Shown here piece after piece: positions 2,446 through 44,899 of a stretch of 64,000 nucleotides of DNA. The notes under the pieces were generated by a model, which worked only from the letters and a program-made list of their open reading frames with translations, made no database searches and was not told the origin of the DNA. Source of the stretch: Escherichia coli (lineage in GTDB: Bacteria > Pseudomonadota > Gammaproteobacteria > Enterobacterales > Enterobacteriaceae); the NCBI RefSeq assembly GCF_041248615.1, contig NZ_CP158426.1. One strand, 5' to 3'. The position numbers and the translations under genes were made by a program. Position 1 is the first letter of the stretch. Each line of letters opens with the position of its first letter.

Positions 2446-2535
2446 TCACTCTGCCAGATGGCGCTATGCCATCTGGTATCACTTAAAGGTATTAAAAACA
2501 ACTTTTTGTCTTTTTACCTTCCCGTTTCGCTCAAG

Positions 2536-2550
2536 TTAGTATAAAAAAGC
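2536..2550. other. attR core (lambda 15-bp common core, reverse orientation)
   Basis: Exact match to reverse complement of GCTTTTTTATACTAA, flanked by host sequence on the ybhB side and lambda P-arm sequence inside. Confidence 0.88.
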
Positions 2551-2694
2551 TGAACGAGAAACGTAAATGATATAAATATCAATATATTAAATTAGATTTT
2601 GCATAAAAAACAGACTACAAAATACTGTAAAACACAACATATGCAGTCACTATGAATCAACTACTTAGATGATATTAGTGACCTGTAACAGAGC
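2551..2694. promoter_or_regulatory. attP P arm (Int arm-type, IHF, Xis/Fis binding region) retained at attR
   Basis: AT-rich sequence adjacent to the core that matches my recollection of the lambda P arm. Confidence 0.6.
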
Positions 2695-2695
2695 A

Positions 2696-2737
2696 TTAGC
2701 GCAAGGTGATTTTTTGTCCTCTTGCGCTAATTTTTTG
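2696..2737 (+). terminator. tI/sib-like rho-independent terminator in the P-arm region
   Basis: Perfect 10-bp stem TTAGCGCAAG/CTTGCGCTAA with 15-nt loop followed by TTTTTT. Confidence 0.55.
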
Positions 2738-3227
2738 TCAACTCACTGGGTTAGTTGAATTTACAACCATGCTCAGTATCTCGATAAGCGCAGGGAGATG
2801 ATGCAGTGGTGGGCGGACTGGCTTGATGAAAGTGTGCTGTAATCCTCATATCCAACCTAAGAGATATGCACAATTTTGTGAATAAGATATTGAGAATTAG
2901 CAAAAGTTTTATTTTGCGTATCATCAATTCAGAATACAAAGTCACATGCTAATGTTCTGCATTGGTATCTTTTGCTTATCCATGTCTACATTATCGCCAA
3001 AATAATAGGTTTTGCCTATCAATTATTTGAATTACTTCCATGAAATTATAACGCACTTGTAATTTTTGATTATTTTTACCTCTCAAGTGTTTTGTTTCTT
3101 CTATCTCTTTGTATTTTTAGCGAAAGTATGCCATATTGCATTCTAATATAACGTGGCGTTGTTTCTGTTTAATGATTTAAATAGTTCAACATAATATTTG
3201 CTAACAAATTATATCCAAGCAAATCAT

Positions 3228-4373
3228 ATGATATTATCATTACAATATATTAGAGGAATAGCATCATTACTTGTTGTTTTATTCCACTTCAGATTCTTGC
3301 TAAATGAGCACTACTCTCAGAAAGATTTGGGTGACCTATTATTTGGGAATGGGCTGTCTGGAGTTGATATATTCTTCATATTAAGTGGATTTATCATCGT
3401 ATACTCAACAAGAAAGAAGGAAGTTAATGATACTTTCTCATTCTCAATTAGAAGAATATTTAGAATATACCCATTACTAATCACATGCTGTTGCATGTAT
3501 TACATAATAAACACTCAATTTCTAACCTATGCTACAGTTGAAAACTTTAGAACCTTACTTATTTCCATCATTCCATTAAATATAAACTGGAATGAAGGCG
3601 CTCCATTCTTTGCCTATAATCTTTTGTACCCGGCCTGGACGATAACATATGAAATTGGTTTCTATGTTTTTTTCGGGGTATCAATGTCTATTTCGCATAA
3701 ATACAGAACAATTATCTGTTCTGTTTTTATAATCATGGTGGTCTCATTTACACAATACTATGTAAATGGAAATATATCATTTTCAGGTGATGTTAGTGCA
3801 GGGTTATTTACAGATAACTGGTTATTAGGATATACAAATGTTATTACATCTCCAATGATGTATGAATTCGTTATTGGGATGTTTCTTTCTGAAATATTTA
3901 CAAACATCAACGAAAGCAAAAGTATTAAAAGGATACTTTCAAAGTATTCGCTTCAAATACTATGGATTTCATGTGGTATATCCATAATATTATTCATTAT
4001 CCAGCGACCTTATGGGCATGGATTGAATGGATTTGGGACTATGGCGATGATACTTATTGCATCATCATTAGTATATGAATACTGCAATATAACACCCAAA
4101 ATAAAAATATTTAATTTCCTTGGTGAAATATCATATTCTTTATATCTAATTCACGCCGTGATACTTGCTTTGTTCTTCTATTATAAGGCAGACCTTGCTG
4201 AAATTGGCATAACTGGTGGATTTTCTGTGTTTTTTTCCTTGGTTATTATCTCAATAACTGCATCATATCCAATATATATTCTCATTGAAAAGCCAATGAT
4301 AAATATAGGTAAACGTTTAATTGACAAGAGAAATAAGAGCATTAACAAAAAAGAAACCGAAATAACAGCGTGA
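3228..4373 (+). CDS. integral membrane acyltransferase, family 3 (putative O-antigen/polysaccharide O-acetyltransferase)
   Basis: Very hydrophobic multi-TM protein; N-terminal R/H motif YIRGIASLLVVLFH typical of acyltransferase family 3; ATG at 3228 chosen over the track's TTG at 3198; AT-rich codon usage. Confidence 0.7.
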   Translation: MILSLQYIRGIASLLVVLFHFRFLLNEHYSQKDLGDLLFGNGLSGVDIFFILSGFIIVYSTRKKEVNDTFSFSIRRIFRIYPLLITCCCMYYIINTQFLTYATVENFRTLLISIIPLNINWNEGAPFFAYNLLYPAWTITYEIGFYVFFGVSMSISHKYRTIICSVFIIMVVSFTQYYVNGNISFSGDVSAGLFTDNWLLGYTNVITSPMMYEFVIGMFLSEIFTNINESKSIKRILSKYSLQILWISCGISIILFIIQRPYGHGLNGFGTMAMILIASSLVYEYCNITPKIKIFNFLGEISYSLYLIHAVILALFFYYKADLAEIGITGGFSVFFSLVIISITASYPIYILIEKPMINIGKRLIDKRNKSINKKETEITA

Positions 4374-4410
4374 TAATGACAAAGTTAGTGCCGGGATACC
4401 CCGGCACTAT

Positions 4411-5748
4411 TTAATCTATTTCGTAAGTGACAGTGATTATCACTTCTGCATTATTACCCAAAACATTTTGATATATATTCATATTACCTGATAATGTAGT
4501 TGCTCCAGTAAGAGTTATATAACTACTATTTGCATCAACCCTTGGAAGTAAAGCGGTAACTGCTGTTGTTAAATTATTATAGTAGCCTGTACTTCCAACA
4601 TATGCAGCTTTATTGCTTGATACATATGGTAACCCTCCAATTCTGAAACCATCTCCTGACCCAATTAAAGTTATACCAAGGTGACATGTTGCCGTTATGA
4701 TATTGCCACTCCTGACATAATTTCCTTTCTGCTGATAATATGTGGCATTACCACCTACAGTCGGAATCCAAACTCCAGTTTCTATATCACCACATGACCA
4801 GTCTTCTGCTGTTGTTAGTTTTCCAGTAACAATAAATTTACTTCCACCACCAGAATTATAAGGAACAAAAATTGGATTTATTCTTGCATAAGTGTTACCG
4901 GTCTGCTCATTAAGATCATTTCTATCAATAAGAACTTGACCATTTTCGAAGTTTGAAATCTGGCAGTCTGTTACACTCCAGTCTCTTAACTTCACATCAG
5001 CATCCATGACACCAATAAGCTTACCAGCATTACCAATTTTTTCTTTATGCATATTTACATACACATTTCTTACCGTAACAGACTGAGGGAACAGATAATT
5101 AGCAGGATTAGTTTTATCACTTAAAACAGATATTACCCAAGGTCTGTATTGAGTACTTACTTCACAATAAAATCCATCAATAAGCGTTCCAGATGCCGCT
5201 GGCCCAAGTAGTATTCCACCTGTAGAGTGATGCGCACTACCTCCAATTACTCTCCCCTTAACGCAGTTAATATAGGCAAAACATCCTAAATCTTGATTGT
5301 CATAGGCTGACATAGCACAGTCTCTAACTGTTACTCGAGAATTTCCTCCGTCATAAGCTGAGCCATCAGTTTTCTTACCAACTATTGATATAAAGTTACC
5401 AATAGCAACTCGACTATAAAAAGTTTTTTTATAACACCCCTCAATTAAAATATCCCAGTTTTCAAACTGAGCATATATATCATAAATGCTGGCATTCCCA
5501 TAATCTATGAAATCACAATATCTTATTTTCGGCGTATAAACGGCACTTTTTATCTTTATACCACCTAATGCTCTCTCCCCACCTGTGAATCTAATGCCAG
5601 TAACGGTGTAATCGCCTTGATAGAAATTATCTGCGGTAGGATTATTTTCGTCAGAATCATCACCCAATATAATAGCAAATTCACTCCCTGAATAATTAAT
5701 TGTCGCCCCCTTATTTGAATATATAGTTACAGGTCTTATAAACTCCAA
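4411..5748 (-). CDS. beta-helix-like protein of unknown function (possible tailspike/depolymerase-like domain); lacks an ATG start, possibly frameshifted or truncated
   Basis: 445-codon ORF whose first codon is TTG; Gly/Asn/Thr/Val-rich repetitive sequence; in-frame upstream TGA; upstream out-of-frame ATG (5831) separated by an A7/T7 tract. Confidence 0.45.
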   Translation of the reverse strand: MEFIRPVTIYSNKGATINYSGSEFAIILGDDSDENNPTADNFYQGDYTVTGIRFTGGERALGGIKIKSAVYTPKIRYCDFIDYGNASIYDIYAQFENWDILIEGCYKKTFYSRVAIGNFISIVGKKTDGSAYDGGNSRVTVRDCAMSAYDNQDLGCFAYINCVKGRVIGGSAHHSTGGILLGPAASGTLIDGFYCEVSTQYRPWVISVLSDKTNPANYLFPQSVTVRNVYVNMHKEKIGNAGKLIGVMDADVKLRDWSVTDCQISNFENGQVLIDRNDLNEQTGNTYARINPIFVPYNSGGGSKFIVTGKLTTAEDWSCGDIETGVWIPTVGGNATYYQQKGNYVRSGNIITATCHLGITLIGSGDGFRIGGLPYVSSNKAAYVGSTGYYNNLTTAVTALLPRVDANSSYITLTGATTLSGNMNIYQNVLGNNAEVIITVTYEID

Positions 5749-6140
5749 AGAATTACTTATCAGATACTCTCCATAAGGAAAAAAATCTCAACTGGTGGTG
5801 AGTACTTTGGTCTGGAGTTTACGTAATTCATAATATTGATTACACCAACATCATAGATAATCGCCACCTTCTGGCGAGGAGCTCCTGATGCAATTAATCG
5901 CCAGGCCTACGCCCATTATTCATGGGTAAATTTTGGACGGAGCCCCCAATTCCATCCTCAATTCTCCCTCGCACTGAGGAGTAGTAAGTGCAATTATTTA
6001 AAAAATCGCAAACAGAATATTATCATTTATTCTTGCATTCTGTTAATTAAAACCACACATAAAAACGTTGATACTTGATAAGTAAGTAGAGTATTATTAA
6101 TGGTTTTAATAACGAACCTTTTAATCATGAGAAGCCTCAA

Positions 6141-7166
6141 ATGACTAGTACCAATAACATAACAAGAAAAAAAATGGATGGAGTAACAATCTTAAGATTT
6201 ATAGCTGCTTTTTATGTGTTTATTTTTCACATTAACATGAGAGTCCCCGTTAATTTTGGAGAGCTTATTAATAAAACCATTAGCAATGGCGTCATTGGCA
6301 TGAGTATTTTCTTCATGCTTTCTGGTTTTGTTTTGACTTATAATTACTATGGTTCCTTGTCAAACAATTACTTCAGGAAGCGAATAGCAAGAATATTTCC
6401 AGCCTATTTATTTTGTGGGCTTTTAACCCTCCCATTTTTGTTATCCAGCGATGCAAGCTTTTTAAAAATGATTGCAAGCATATTCTTGTTTGTTACTGGA
6501 ATGCAATCATGGATTTATCAGACCTTCGATTTTTGGAATTTTAGCGGTACCTGGTCAATATCAGTGGAATTGTTTTTTTATGCCCTGTTTCCATTTTTGA
6601 TAAAAAACATCAACAAAAACAATGTAATTTATGTTTTACTTTTTTCATATTTATCTTCAGCATTATTAATCCCATTATCTGATATAATTCAGGGACCTGT
6701 AGTTTGGTCCGTATATTACGCAACTCCAATATACAGGTTACCAGAATTTGTGGTGGGCGTCTGTATCGCAATACTTTTTTTAAATGGCTATCGTGTTAAC
6801 CATTATACATGGCTATTAAGCATTTTATTATTTCTGTATGCTACCACCCAGCAAAACAATAACTCCATGGGGGTGAACTATCTCACAATTCCTGCGATAT
6901 CAATTATGTTATTGCACCTGGCAAAAATCAACATCAAAAACAACATTGCAAACAGAGCGATCATTTACTTTGGAGATATAAGTTATTCGTTTTATTTGAT
7001 GCAATTACCTATATTATATTACCTGGATCATAATAAAAACTCATTTATTCTTAACTATGGTCTTTTTAGCTGGCTTGTACTTTTTGTTATTAATACTGCA
7101 ATGGCATCATTATCTTATCACTTTCTGGAGAAGAACGATAAAATCAGAAAAATAATTACATCCTGA
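6141..7166 (+). CDS. integral membrane acyltransferase, family 3 (second copy, divergent sequence)
   Basis: 341-aa hydrophobic protein with motif ILRFIAAFYVFIFH; AT-rich. Confidence 0.7.
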   Translation: MTSTNNITRKKMDGVTILRFIAAFYVFIFHINMRVPVNFGELINKTISNGVIGMSIFFMLSGFVLTYNYYGSLSNNYFRKRIARIFPAYLFCGLLTLPFLLSSDASFLKMIASIFLFVTGMQSWIYQTFDFWNFSGTWSISVELFFYALFPFLIKNINKNNVIYVLLFSYLSSALLIPLSDIIQGPVVWSVYYATPIYRLPEFVVGVCIAILFLNGYRVNHYTWLLSILLFLYATTQQNNNSMGVNYLTIPAISIMLLHLAKINIKNNIANRAIIYFGDISYSFYLMQLPILYYLDHNKNSFILNYGLFSWLVLFVINTAMASLSYHFLEKNDKIRKIITS

Positions 7167-7167
7167 T

Positions 7168-7193
7168 TTATTAGGGGGGTACCCCCCTAATAA
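7168..7193. terminator. 26-bp perfect palindrome, candidate bidirectional terminator between convergent genes
   Basis: TTATTAGGGGGGTACCCCCCTAATAA lies between the stop of the + strand acyltransferase (7166) and the stop of the - strand tail fiber assembly gene (7208). Confidence 0.5.
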
Positions 7194-7207
7194 TACACCA
7201 CATAATT

Positions 7208-7603
7208 TCAACGTATTATCTCTGGCCTTTCTGGCCAGGTTATTTCTGGAATTAAGGACAAATCCACTGACATTAAATTATTAACATATTCCTTCCATAA
7301 CAAAAGATTGTTCTTGTTATTTTCACTTATAATACCGAGTAACAAATCTGACTGCCAGTTCATAATTAAACCATTAGCACTATCCAGCAGACACTGTCTT
7401 TCATTCTCTGCCTCACGAAGTAATTCATCATGTGTTTTTGGCGGCTGCGTAGGTGACGAAAGCTTTCCCTTATCATAGAACCAACCAATTCTTACATTAT
7501 CGGATACAGGTATAACTAACGCATTAGTTGGTTGCCAGGCACTCTCACCATCCCATACCGCAATATTGGTAACAACACCATTTTCTATAACGGCATAGTT
7601 CAT
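7208..7603 (-). CDS. tail fiber assembly protein (Tfa-like chaperone)
   Basis: Protein MNYAVIENGVVTNIAVWDGE... resembles the Tfa family N-terminus; immediately downstream of the tail fiber gene with TGATG overlap. Confidence 0.7.
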   Translation of the reverse strand: MNYAVIENGVVTNIAVWDGESAWQPTNALVIPVSDNVRIGWFYDKGKLSSPTQPPKTHDELLREAENERQCLLDSANGLIMNWQSDLLLGIISENNKNNLLLWKEYVNNLMSVDLSLIPEITWPERPEIIR

Positions 7604-27161: not shown

Positions 27162-27713
27162 TTAGCCCATCATTTTTCTATACGCCTCTGCAGCCTGCTC
27201 CGGCGTTAAGTTGGTAATTTCTGTTCTGACTGGTCCTCCATCAGCGCCAGTCACTTCATTTTTGACGTTGTCTTTAAACGCCTGAACAGAAACATGACGC
27301 CCAAGCAACTCAAGGTTTTTAACCTTATCAGGCCATTTGATTTTCTTCAGAAGTGCGGCGCTATCTGCGGATACCATCTCCATGACATCCATTCCTGATA
27401 GCGTTGTGCGCCATACCTTAGGCCAGTCTTTAATGGGTTTTAGATCACCGTTTTGCAGGAGAATGTCGAGCACATCCATCTGGTCGATTTCAATAAGGCG
27501 ATTAAGTACATATTCTGCATTAATACCAACAAGATCATTGCGTTGCGCTTTCAGTTCAGCGATTCTGAATTGTATGTCAGGTTTTGACAGGTTTTCGGAT
27601 GCGGTACGGTTAGCTGTCTTTGCGCTGTACCCCGCCCGAATAGCCGCTTGCGTGGCGTTTAAATCGATGAGGTACTCGCGACAGAACATTTCTTGCTTGT
27701 CGGTGAGTGCCAT
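27162..27713 (-). CDS. terminase small subunit
   Basis: Start [15 protein letters not shown]..., typical small terminase N-terminus; ATG at 27713. Confidence 0.75.
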
Positions 27714-27782
27714 TACTTTTCCTAACACTGAGGTAATTTATTCTTGGACAGTTACTACATAACTATCAATGCAATACAAATC

Positions 27783-35017: not shown

Positions 35018-35296
35018 TCAGGCCTCAAAACTGTTGCAGCAGTCTTGAGGCTTTTCTTTTGTCAGCACCATGGCTACTTTCTTTGCTAGCTTTGCTAATT
35101 CCTCGTCTTCAACACCCCACTCCAGCACAGCCAGAAGCATGGCCATCTTTGGGATAAAGCTGTCTTTCCATCGCGAAATTTGCGATTCATTAATCCCTAA
35201 TGCATCAGCAACCTTTCGCTGACCACGTACAGCAATTCGATTCAGGATGTTGCTTGTGATTGCATTCGCTTTCTTGCGAGTACTTGTAAGTTGCAT
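35018..35296 (-). CDS. cII: CII transcriptional activator
   Basis: 92 aa from ATG at 35296 with RBS AAGGAAA; HTH ...ALGINESQISRWKDSFIPKMAMLLAVLEWGV resembles lambda CII. Confidence 0.75.
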   Translation of the reverse strand: MQLTSTRKKANAITSNILNRIAVRGQRKVADALGINESQISRWKDSFIPKMAMLLAVLEWGVEDEELAKLAKKVAMVLTKEKPQDCCNSFEA

Positions 35297-35352
35297 ATGT
35301 AAGTATTTCCTTAACAAATAAGAAGTTATACGCACCAACTGATGCGCGTTGT

Positions 35353-35398
35353 ATTCCCGCATTTCGGCGGGAATAAGGACCATGACTGTTAAAGAGCA
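35353..35398 (-). promoter_or_regulatory. nutR (boxA plus boxB hairpin)
   Basis: Reverse strand TGCTCTTTAACA (boxA-like) then hairpin TTCCCGCCGAAATGCGGGAA; same boxB sequence as nutL. Confidence 0.6.
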
Positions 35399-36633: not shown

Positions 36634-36933
36634 ATGGCAGTAGTCATTACATATCTGGCTGACGATAACGCCAGAAATCGCCGCAGAGCACGCAGACAGG
36701 CTCAACGTGAACAGGCAATGCAAGAACAGCGACTGGCGCGAAAGATTGCGCTAAAGCTCTCTGGTTGCGTCAGAGCAGATAAAGCAGCATCACTCGGAAG
36801 CCTTCGCTGCAAGAAGGCAGAAGAGGTCGAGAGTAAACGGAATCGTATTTACTACCGCAAGCCACGCAGTGAAATGGGTGTGACTTGTGTTGGTCGCCAG
36901 AAAATGAAATTAGGCAGTAAGCCACTTATTTGA
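36634..36933 (+). CDS. N: antiterminator N (phage 21-like)
   Basis: 99 aa with N-terminal arginine-rich motif NARNRRRARRQAQRE and C-terminus ...YYRKPRSEMGVTCVGRQKMKLGSKPLI resembling N proteins. Confidence 0.75.
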   Translation: MAVVITYLADDNARNRRRARRQAQREQAMQEQRLARKIALKLSGCVRADKAASLGSLRCKKAEEVESKRNRIYYRKPRSEMGVTCVGRQKMKLGSKPLI

Positions 36934-43494: not shown

Positions 43495-43518
43495 AAGCCG
43501 CCTGATGGCGGTTTTTTC
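43495..43518 (+). terminator. rho-independent terminator upstream of xis
   Basis: Hairpin GCCGCC-TGAT-GGCGGT followed by TTTTTT. Confidence 0.5.
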
Positions 43519-43544
43519 TTGCGTGTAATTGCGGAGACTTTGCG

Positions 43545-43763
43545 ATGTACTTGACACTTCAGGAGTGGAATGCACGCCAGCGACGCCCAAGAAGCCTTGA
43601 AACAGTTCGTCGATGGGTGCGCGAATGCAGGATATTCCCTCCTCCGGTTAAGGATGGAAGAGAATATCTGTTCCACGAATCAGCGGTAAAGGTTGACTTA
43701 AATCGACCAGTAACAGGTAGCCTTTTGAAGAGGATCAGAAATGGGAAGAAGGCGAAGTCATGA
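43545..43763 (+). CDS. xis: excisionase
   Basis: 72 aa MYLTLQEWNARQRRPRSLETVRRWVRECRIFPPPVKDGREYLFHESAVKVDLNRPVTGSLLKRIRNGKKAKS, lambda Xis; overlaps int start. Confidence 0.92.
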   Translation: MYLTLQEWNARQRRPRSLETVRRWVRECRIFPPPVKDGREYLFHESAVKVDLNRPVTGSLLKRIRNGKKAKS

Positions 43764-44811
43764 GCGCCGGGATTTACCCCCTAACCTTTATATAAGAAAC
43801 AATGGATATTACTGCTACAGGGACCCAAGGACGGGTAAAGAGTTTGGATTAGGCAGAGACAGGCGAATCGCAATCACTGAAGCCATACAGGCCAACATTG
43901 AGTTATTTTCAGGACACAAACACAAGCCTCTGACAGCGAGAATCAACAGTGATAATTCCGTTACGCTACATTCATGGCTTGATCGCTACGAAAAAATCCT
44001 GGCCAGCAGAGGAATCAAGCAGAAGACACTCATAAATTACATGAGCAAAATTAAAGCAATAAGGAGGGGGCTGCCTGATGCTCCACTTGAAGACATCACC
44101 ACAAAAGAAATTGCGGCAATGCTCAATGGATACATAGACGAGGGCAAGGCGGCGTCAGCCAAGTTAATCAGATCAACACTGAGCGATGCATTCCGAGAGG
44201 CAATAGCTGAAGGCCATATAACAACAAACCCTGTCGCTGCCACTCGCGCAGCAAAATCAGAGGTAAGGAGATCAAGACTTACGGCTGACGAATACCTGAA
44301 AATTTATCAAGCAGCAGAATCATCACCATGTTGGCTCAGACTTGCAATGGAACTGGCTGTTGTTACCGGGCAACGAGTTGGTGATTTATGCGAAATGAAG
44401 TGGTCTGATATCGTAGATGGATATCTTTATGTCGAGCAAAGCAAAACAGGCGTAAAAATTGCCATCCCAACAACATTGCATGTTGATGCTCTCGGGATAT
44501 CAATGAAGGAAACACTTGATAAATGCAAAGAGATTCTTGGCGGAGAAACCATAATTGCATCTACTCGTCGTGAACCGCTTTCATCCGGCACAGTATCAAG
44601 GTATTTTATGCGCGCACGAAAAGCATCAGGTCTTTCCTTCGAAGGGGATCCGCCTACCTTTCACGAGTTGCGCAGTTTGTCTGCAAGACTCTATGAGAAG
44701 CAGATAAGCGATAAGTTTGCTCAACATCTTCTCGGGCATAAGTCGGACACCATGGCATCACAGTATCGTGATGACAGAGGCAGGGAGTGGGACAAAATTG
44801 AAATCAAATAA
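43741..44811 (+). CDS. int: tyrosine integrase (lambda Int)
   Basis: 356 aa MGRRRSHERRDLPPNLYIRNNGYYCYRDPRTGKEFGLGRDRRIAITEA... with catalytic R...HxxR...Y region; adjacent to attL. Confidence 0.95.
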   Translation: MGRRRSHERRDLPPNLYIRNNGYYCYRDPRTGKEFGLGRDRRIAITEAIQANIELFSGHKHKPLTARINSDNSVTLHSWLDRYEKILASRGIKQKTLINYMSKIKAIRRGLPDAPLEDITTKEIAAMLNGYIDEGKAASAKLIRSTLSDAFREAIAEGHITTNPVAATRAAKSEVRRSRLTADEYLKIYQAAESSPCWLRLAMELAVVTGQRVGDLCEMKWSDIVDGYLYVEQSKTGVKIAIPTTLHVDALGISMKETLDKCKEILGGETIIASTRREPLSSGTVSRYFMRARKASGLSFEGDPPTFHELRSLSARLYEKQISDKFAQHLLGHKSDTMASQYRDDRGREWDKIEIK

Positions 44812-44884
44812 TGATTTTATTTTGACTGATAGTGACCTGTTCGTTGCAACAAATTGATAAGCAATGCTTTTTTATAATGCCAAC
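44812..44884. promoter_or_regulatory. attP P' arm (Int arm-type and IHF H' sites) retained at attL
   Basis: Sequence between int stop and core that matches my recollection of the lambda P' arm. Confidence 0.6.
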
Positions 44885-44899
44885 TTAGTATAAAAAAGC
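44885..44899. other. attL core (lambda 15-bp common core, reverse orientation)
   Basis: Second exact copy of TTAGTATAAAAAAGC followed by host ybhC-proximal sequence. Confidence 0.88.

Follow-up and report, generated by a model that had tools for sequence, protein, structure and literature searches.

A lambda tI/sib-like terminator hairpin parted from int in a mosaic Escherichia coli prophage

The prophage at the lambda attachment site and its integration module

The whole stretch of Escherichia coli DNA that was analysed, 64,000 nucleotides in length and called the window below, contains bioA-ybhB, attR, a 42.3-kb prophage, attL and ybhC, in this order. bioB is incomplete at the window start and is on the - strand. 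bioA (510-1910) and ybhB (1969-2445) are both on the + strand and are directed at the hairpin which is the subject of this work; an additional hairpin follows ybhB at 2451-2477. On the other side of the prophage the host gene ybhC starts past the second att core. E. coli NRZ14408 (NZ_LT599825.1) matches the window with an identity of 100%.

The 15-bp att core GCTTTTTTATACTAA is present in exactly two copies in the window, both in the same orientation, where 0.01 matches would be expected by chance. The copies, each an exact match to the core (O), are at 2536-2550 (attR) and at 44885-44899 (attL), read on the - strand. When 2551-44899 was removed in silico, the remaining 201-nt attB was 100% identical to the unbroken ybhB-ybhC sites of other E. 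coli, and such an unbroken attB site was found in 3489 of 5426 complete genomes. The attR junction between 2451 and 3200, comprising the end of ybhB, the core, the P arm, sib, an integrase remnant and the start of an acyltransferase gene, recurs with 99.5% identity in strains of E. coli B (REL606, BL21) and in E. coli C, and at least 80% of its length was present in 49 of the same 5426 genomes.

The end at 2536 could be identified as attR because the segment next to it, 2551-2694 (+), is a lambda P arm adjoining bioA/ybhB. Read in the int-sense direction, it is colinear with the P arm of lambda attP and includes the homologues of two lambda Int arm-site footprints, int 2 (about 2639-2658) and int 1/P1 (about 2671-2690). 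The placement of the hairpin on the P-arm side at attR, proposed previously in a sequence-only reading of this DNA, was thus correct. The P' arm at attL (44812-44884, +) is 100% identical to lambda from the int stop to the core. The P arm differs from that of lambda by two substitutions and one 1-bp deletion. The deletion is at 2563-2569, where lambda GTAAAATG is replaced by GTAAATG and the A-run 2565-2567 is one base shorter than the AAAA of lambda. It is located between the core and the IHF H2-like sequence TATCAATATATTA, is unique among the 10 aligned attP sequences, and changes by one base how the sites near the core are spaced.

The int gene (43741-44811, +) codes for a protein of 356 amino acids, 353 of which are identical to lambda Int, and the preceding xis gene (43545-43763, +) for 72 amino acids, of which 71 are identical to lambda Xis; both proteins are thus 99% identical to their lambda counterparts. 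Identity to lambda begins about 90 bp upstream of xis and includes the pI/cII site, which is the same as in lambda: the cII-binding repeat TTGC-N6-TTGC of pI is at 43519-43532 (+), a short way ahead of the xis ATG; in the phage 434 record its homologue bears the label pI/CII. The site is closely preceded, at about 43497-43518 (+), by another hairpin with a T-run, GCCGCCTGATGGCGGTTTTTT, which is identical to lambda and is an annotated terminator in the 434 record.

Genes for the two regulators of int were found elsewhere in the prophage. The cII-like activator gene (35018-35383, -; PF05269 Phage_CII, E = 5e-44) probably has its true start internally. At the head of the pL operon is an N-like antiterminator gene (36634-36933, +), which matched phrog_271, 'anti-termination protein N-like', with E = 8e-36; its product had no match in Pfam and is distinct from lambda N. 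From the N-like gene an unbroken series of + strand ORFs extends to xis and int. The prophage also encodes a P22-type Cro and a repressor with an S24 peptidase domain. Judged by homology, the components of a two-promoter input to int, a cII-dependent pI and an N-antiterminated pL, appear to be in place, and so do all the other components of the lambda circuit.

The prophage as a whole is a mosaic. Its xis-int-att module is that of lambda, the cro/repressor region is of P22 type, and there is a lambdoid replication region and a Q antiterminator. The structural genes are closest to those of myoviruses with sheath and baseplate (vB_EcoM-611R5, 97%; Salmonella SEN34, 80%). In its P22-type cro and repressor, its non-lambda N-like protein and its myovirus structural genes the phage differs from lambda, with which it shares the chromosomal site and the parting of int from sib upon integration.

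Between 2759 and 2842 (+) we found the last 27 codons of an integrase of the HK620/IME10/N7 (IntS-like) type, IYNHAQYLDKRREMMQWWADWLDESVL and the stop codon, 25 of 26 residues being identical to the int 3' ends of HK620, IME10 and N7. This remnant, called a C-terminal pseudogene by PGAP, directly follows sib in the orientation of lambda int; it is common to 434, PhiR70_1, vB_EcoP-720R6 and the Salmonella phages 29485 and SI8, and it is absent in lambda. It has the look of a scar left by an exchange of integration modules long ago. An ORF on the opposite strand (2751-2945, -, 64 amino acids) had no match in Pfam or PHROG. The region 2750-7500 is a low-GC island (29-39% GC versus about 54% in the host flank) with two Acyl_transf_3 genes, at 3198-4373 (+) and 6141-7166 (+), and with an ORF of 444 amino acids (4411-5748, -) for which the Pfam, PHROG and NCBIfam searches gave no match. 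The island is probably lysogenic-conversion cargo, in the place that the b region has in lambda.

The hairpin and its counterparts in lambda, HK022 and HK97

The hairpin extends from 2695 to 2731 on the + strand. Its 12-bp stem is formed by the 5' arm AUUAGCGCAAGG (2695-2706) and the 3' arm UCUUGCGCUAAU (2720-2731), and is topped by a U x C mismatch (2707/2719), a 3-bp apical helix (2708-2710/2716-2718) and a 5-nt loop (2711-2715). A run of six T (2731-2736), the first of which doubles as the last base of the stem, gives the structure the form of an intrinsic terminator, tI, and GTCA follows directly at 2737-2740. The sequence-only reading, which had put the hairpin and T6 at 2696..2737, came within 1 nt of these limits (2695-2736). 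It had also given the distance from int in the prophage as about 42 kb, in agreement with the 42.1 kb measured here from the int stop, a distance that follows from the position of int at 43741-44811.

The 47-nt RNA of the hairpin has a predicted folding energy of -19.1 kcal/mol, to be compared with a mean of -7.4 kcal/mol for shuffled sequences (z = -5.5), and none of 200 shuffles folded as well. In a custom scan of both strands of the whole 64-kb window for perfect stems (10 bp or more) that enclose a loop of no more than 20 nt and precede five or more T, the only match was this hairpin, on the + strand only; 100 dinucleotide-preserving shuffles scanned in the same way gave none. A chance origin is excluded by the folding z-score and the shuffles. 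The hairpin was not listed by a general terminator scan of the window, because the stem and loop rules of that scan bar an internal mismatch. We also considered a bidirectional terminator and rejected it: the - strand does fold (-17.8 kcal/mol), but there is no T-run after its stem, the T-run being present on the + (int-sense) strand only.

Comparison with lambda placed the hairpin within a longer colinear segment. Window 2532-2740 is 97.1% identical to lambda 27534-27742 (J02459), and homology stops right after TTTTTTGTCA, window position 2740 corresponding to lambda 27534. To mimic the excised circle, the attL side was joined to the attR side and the product was aligned globally to lambda J02459. 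The excised junction proved to be colinear with lambda through int stop, P', core, P and hairpin, with the P' arm and the core identical. The distance from the int stop to the beginning of the stem, on the int-sense strand, is 233 nt. The claim that in the excised circle the hairpin is directly downstream of int-P'-core was thereby confirmed. Failure to align with lambda sib/tI had been named beforehand as an outcome that would speak against the identification; in the alignment the hairpin does align, with two differences only.

The lambda tI/sib element (about 27534-27590, just past the P arm of attP) has the same distance to the int stop, the same place beyond P'-O-P and the same strand, and the T6 run, the GTCA and both lower-stem halves are shared. 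The two differences are one extra T in the loop of the window hairpin and a T-to-C change at 2719. Outside the element the window differs from lambda in the region past GTCA and in the 1-bp deletion of the P arm.

The homologous position carries an explicit sib annotation in two other phages. The HK022 record (X51962) has a 50-nt 'sib transcription processing site', ACAGAGCATTAGCGC...GCGCTAATTTTTTGT, which corresponds to window 2688-2738, and the HK97 record (AF069529) has a 'sib retroregulation site' at the same aligned position, again window 2688-2738. Relative to this 50-nt site (ACAGAG...TTTTGT) the window has one substitution and one inserted T, and sib follows int-attP at an equal distance. 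Unlike the window, HK022 has another att core and another Int specificity, and the downstream flanks of both HK022 and HK97 are unrelated to that of the window. In the phage 434 and O276 records the homologous place is labelled 'terminator'. Phage 434 (OL657226) has the same hairpin after attP, and just downstream of it the same remnant of an HK620-type integrase 3' end (window 2759-2842). It differs from the window in the core-proximal half of the P arm, which has diverged in 434, and in having a lambda-like loop (T5) and a T at window position 2719.

We think it very probable that 2695-2736, together with the flanking ACAGAG and UUUUGU, is the orthologue of lambda tI/sib and forms the last element of an xis-int-attP-sib module in a mosaic prophage at att-lambda. 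We speak of an orthologue rather than of mere resemblance because the alignment to lambda and the sib annotations of HK022 and HK97 coincide. It must be noted that lambda sib biology in another prophage is already known and belongs to the textbooks.

Conservation of the element among lambdoid phages

The element was compared in an alignment of 17 phages: lambda, 434, HK022, HK97, HK106, JEP4, ev099, Huey, mEp332, 611R6, a phi80 record, PPompW, an Stx1a phage, BP-4795, JLK-2012, Salmonella phage 29485 and the phage of the window. Mean pairwise identity was 94% for the hairpin with both lower-stem halves (2687-2740) and 39% for the following 20 nt (2741-2760). In the alignment of 10 attP sequences the sib segment (2687-2740) had a mean pairwise identity of 96%, and the core-proximal P arm (2551-2632) one of 75%. 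The T6 run is invariant in the 17 phages. The lower-stem halves are as well conserved as the stem itself, the changes in them being A-to-G substitutions that keep a wobble pair, plus one G-to-A in PPompW. Past GTCA there are at least seven unrelated sequences among the 17 phages, and in many lineages homology between phages breaks 2-4 nt after GTCA. No other part of the att region is as well conserved in these alignments as the sib element, which marks a sharp module boundary, as judged from the 94% identity in the hairpin against 39% in the next 20 nt and 75% in the core-proximal P arm.

The extra loop T and C2719, by which the window hairpin differs from lambda, also occur in BP-4795, JLK-2012, HK106 and the phi80 record, therefore they are common natural variants.

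Conservation of this kind could in principle reflect a role of the DNA itself, either as an extension of attP that binds protein near P1 or as a preferred recombination joint, the RNA having no function. The counterpart of lambda's P1 Int footprint ends about 5 nt ahead of the hairpin, and the abrupt loss of homology 2-4 nt after GTCA in many lineages would suit a recombination joint. A sharp boundary is, however, equally expected if selection preserves a functional module, and an inverted repeat which is close to perfect and has a T-run after it on the int-sense strand alone follows the logic of an RNA terminator. The limit of minimal lambda attP is at about -152 relative to the centre of the core; here the stem begins 152 nt from that centre. 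The element is also situated just outside the P1 footprint homologue, which speaks against a DNA-level role. We consider an exclusively DNA-level role extremely improbable, and continue to regard the element as an orthologue of tI/sib.

In two phages the hairpin occurs in another setting. In BP-4795 and JLK-2012 (loci L007 and L016 of our collection, positions about 301-391) the hairpin is accompanied by part of the distal P arm; it shares the orientation of a type III effector gene (ORF84/espV) and lies about 200 nt downstream of that gene, not beside int-attP. The BP-4795 record has a second place which matches the hairpin. The occurrence of the hairpin after an effector gene means that the sequence alone is no guarantee of a retroregulatory role.

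Downstream of sib, phage 434 (locus L002, 1820-1870) and lambda (locus L001, 1735-1775) have a common motif, GCACAAAGCCTYGCAATCCAGTGCAAAG, which is marked in 434 as CII-binding repeats, on the strand directed back to attP. The motif is absent from the window, where homology to 434 stops near 2831.

Two predicted forms of the RNA and the probable control of int

The lower stem is made of two halves on either side of the terminator, ACAGAG (2688-2693, +), with which the annotated sib feature of HK022 begins, and UUUUGU (2733-2738), which with the following CA (to 2740, +) makes up the final bases of the conserved module. RNA that ends at 2736 was predicted to form the upper hairpin only, the lower stem being absent from the minimum-energy fold. 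A 75-nt read-through RNA (2676-2750) had a folding energy of -30.4 kcal/mol (z = -5.9), and in its fold ACAGAG 2688-2693 pairs with UUUUGU 2733-2738 below the terminator stem, as in lambda. The read-through duplex is thus predicted to have 6 + 12 + 3 = 21 bp, about two helical turns, with two single mismatches inside. When a 388-nt composite was folded, consisting of the last 60 nt of int, P', core, P, the hairpin and a further 50 nt, predicted pair probabilities were 0.81-1.0 in the upper stem and 0.87-0.98 in the lower stem. With its length of about 21 bp, the predicted duplex agrees with the model of the RNase III substrate established for lambda.

The alignment of the 17 phages was also inspected for covariation. 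Although 99% of its cells are paired, the element is nearly invariant: 17 of 23 pairs are constant, three vary on one side only, to a wobble pair, and none shows a compensatory change, so that the comparison speaks neither for nor against the fold. The hairpin structure rests on thermodynamics and lambda genetics. Rfam covariance models gave no match at E <= 1 between 2300 and 3300 on either strand. The 'Sib' RNAs of E. coli that a literature search brings up are antisense RNAs of toxin-antitoxin systems and are unrelated to phage sib.

A simpler view would be that the hairpin is a plain intrinsic terminator, which ends the int unit or marks the end of a module, with no retroregulation by RNase III. 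This would agree with the wording of the 434 and O276 records, with the lack of covariation specific to the lower stem, and with the fact that terminator anatomy is the sole part which is directly shown. It would leave unexplained, however, why the lower-stem halves, which are outside the terminator proper and are predicted to pair only in the read-through RNA, are conserved to an equal degree. The sib annotation of HK022 and HK97 spans exactly the extended segment, and the sequence is near-identical to that of lambda, for which mutations in sib and a dependence on RNase III are established. A plain terminator is in our opinion quite unlikely, and in what follows the element is treated as sib.

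In lambda, terminated pI transcripts retain a stable 3' hairpin. Transcripts from pL, antiterminated by N, form a longer duplex, which is cut by RNase III, and 3'-to-5' decay destroys the int message. By analogy, in the prophage of the window, as long as its DNA is not integrated, int-sense transcripts would cross P'-core-P and meet sib 233 nt past the int stop. Transcripts from pI, activated by cII, would end at the T-run and keep the protective 3' hairpin, so that Int would be made. N-antiterminated pL transcripts would read through, the lower stem would form, and the resulting duplex of about 21 bp would be cut by RNase III; 3'-to-5' decay of the int message would follow, and no Int would be made from pL. 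Read-through of tI by the N-like protein of this prophage is an assumption in this scheme. Integration by Int recombination has shifted sib to attR, 42 kb from int, therefore pL transcripts made after induction should escape sib and supply excision with Int as well as Xis.

We infer RNase III cleavage in the prophage, the efficiency of termination and the effect on Int from lambda, and what is seen here directly is the anatomy alone. The lowering of int mRNA from pL by the downstream element sib is mentioned in a summary statement (PMC5300877), which was the only source obtained by our literature search; no open full text giving the sib sequence or the cleavage sites was found in that search. 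As anatomy, the layout for lambda-type retroregulation proposed in the sequence-only reading is supported by the colinear excised junction, the int-xis-att module and the orthologous element. The proposal that the site acts only after excision has to be widened. It is right in so far as sib is separated from int in the prophage, but sib is active on any non-integrated phage DNA, be it an infecting or an excised genome.

It can be asked whether the relevant job of the hairpin in the lysogen is to stop read-through from bioA-ybhB before it enters the prophage with its low-GC acyltransferase cargo. bioA and ybhB on the + strand face the hairpin, and termination is confined to the + strand, on which an acyltransferase gene (3198-4373) comes next. 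Such an effect would, however, be a by-product of the geometry, compatible with retroregulation of int and not an alternative to it. The element is kept with int-attP whatever the insertion site or the downstream cargo may be, and with the hairpin at 2451-2477 there is already one after ybhB. As the main task of the element, protection against host transcripts seems very unlikely.

An extended version, in which sib does more than in lambda, may be considered as well. An outer helix of UAGUGA 2676-2681 and UCACUG 2743-2748, the latter from non-lambda downstream sequence, might lengthen the read-through duplex and alter its processing by RNase III, and the terminator might in addition shield the low-GC acyltransferase cargo of the lysogen from bioA-ybhB read-through, making sib a dual-use element at the end of the module. 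We find this unlikely.

Beyond correct annotation the identification of the element carries little weight. It does document that a phage with an otherwise unrelated immunity region and structural genes of the myovirus type has received the lambda xis-int-attP-sib cassette as a whole, together with the pI/cII site and the read-through stem. The break of homology among lambdoid phages 2-4 nt after sib fits the idea that sib is a selected part of the integration module. By analogy with lambda, the prophage of this strain should have lambda-like control of Int upon infection and upon induction.
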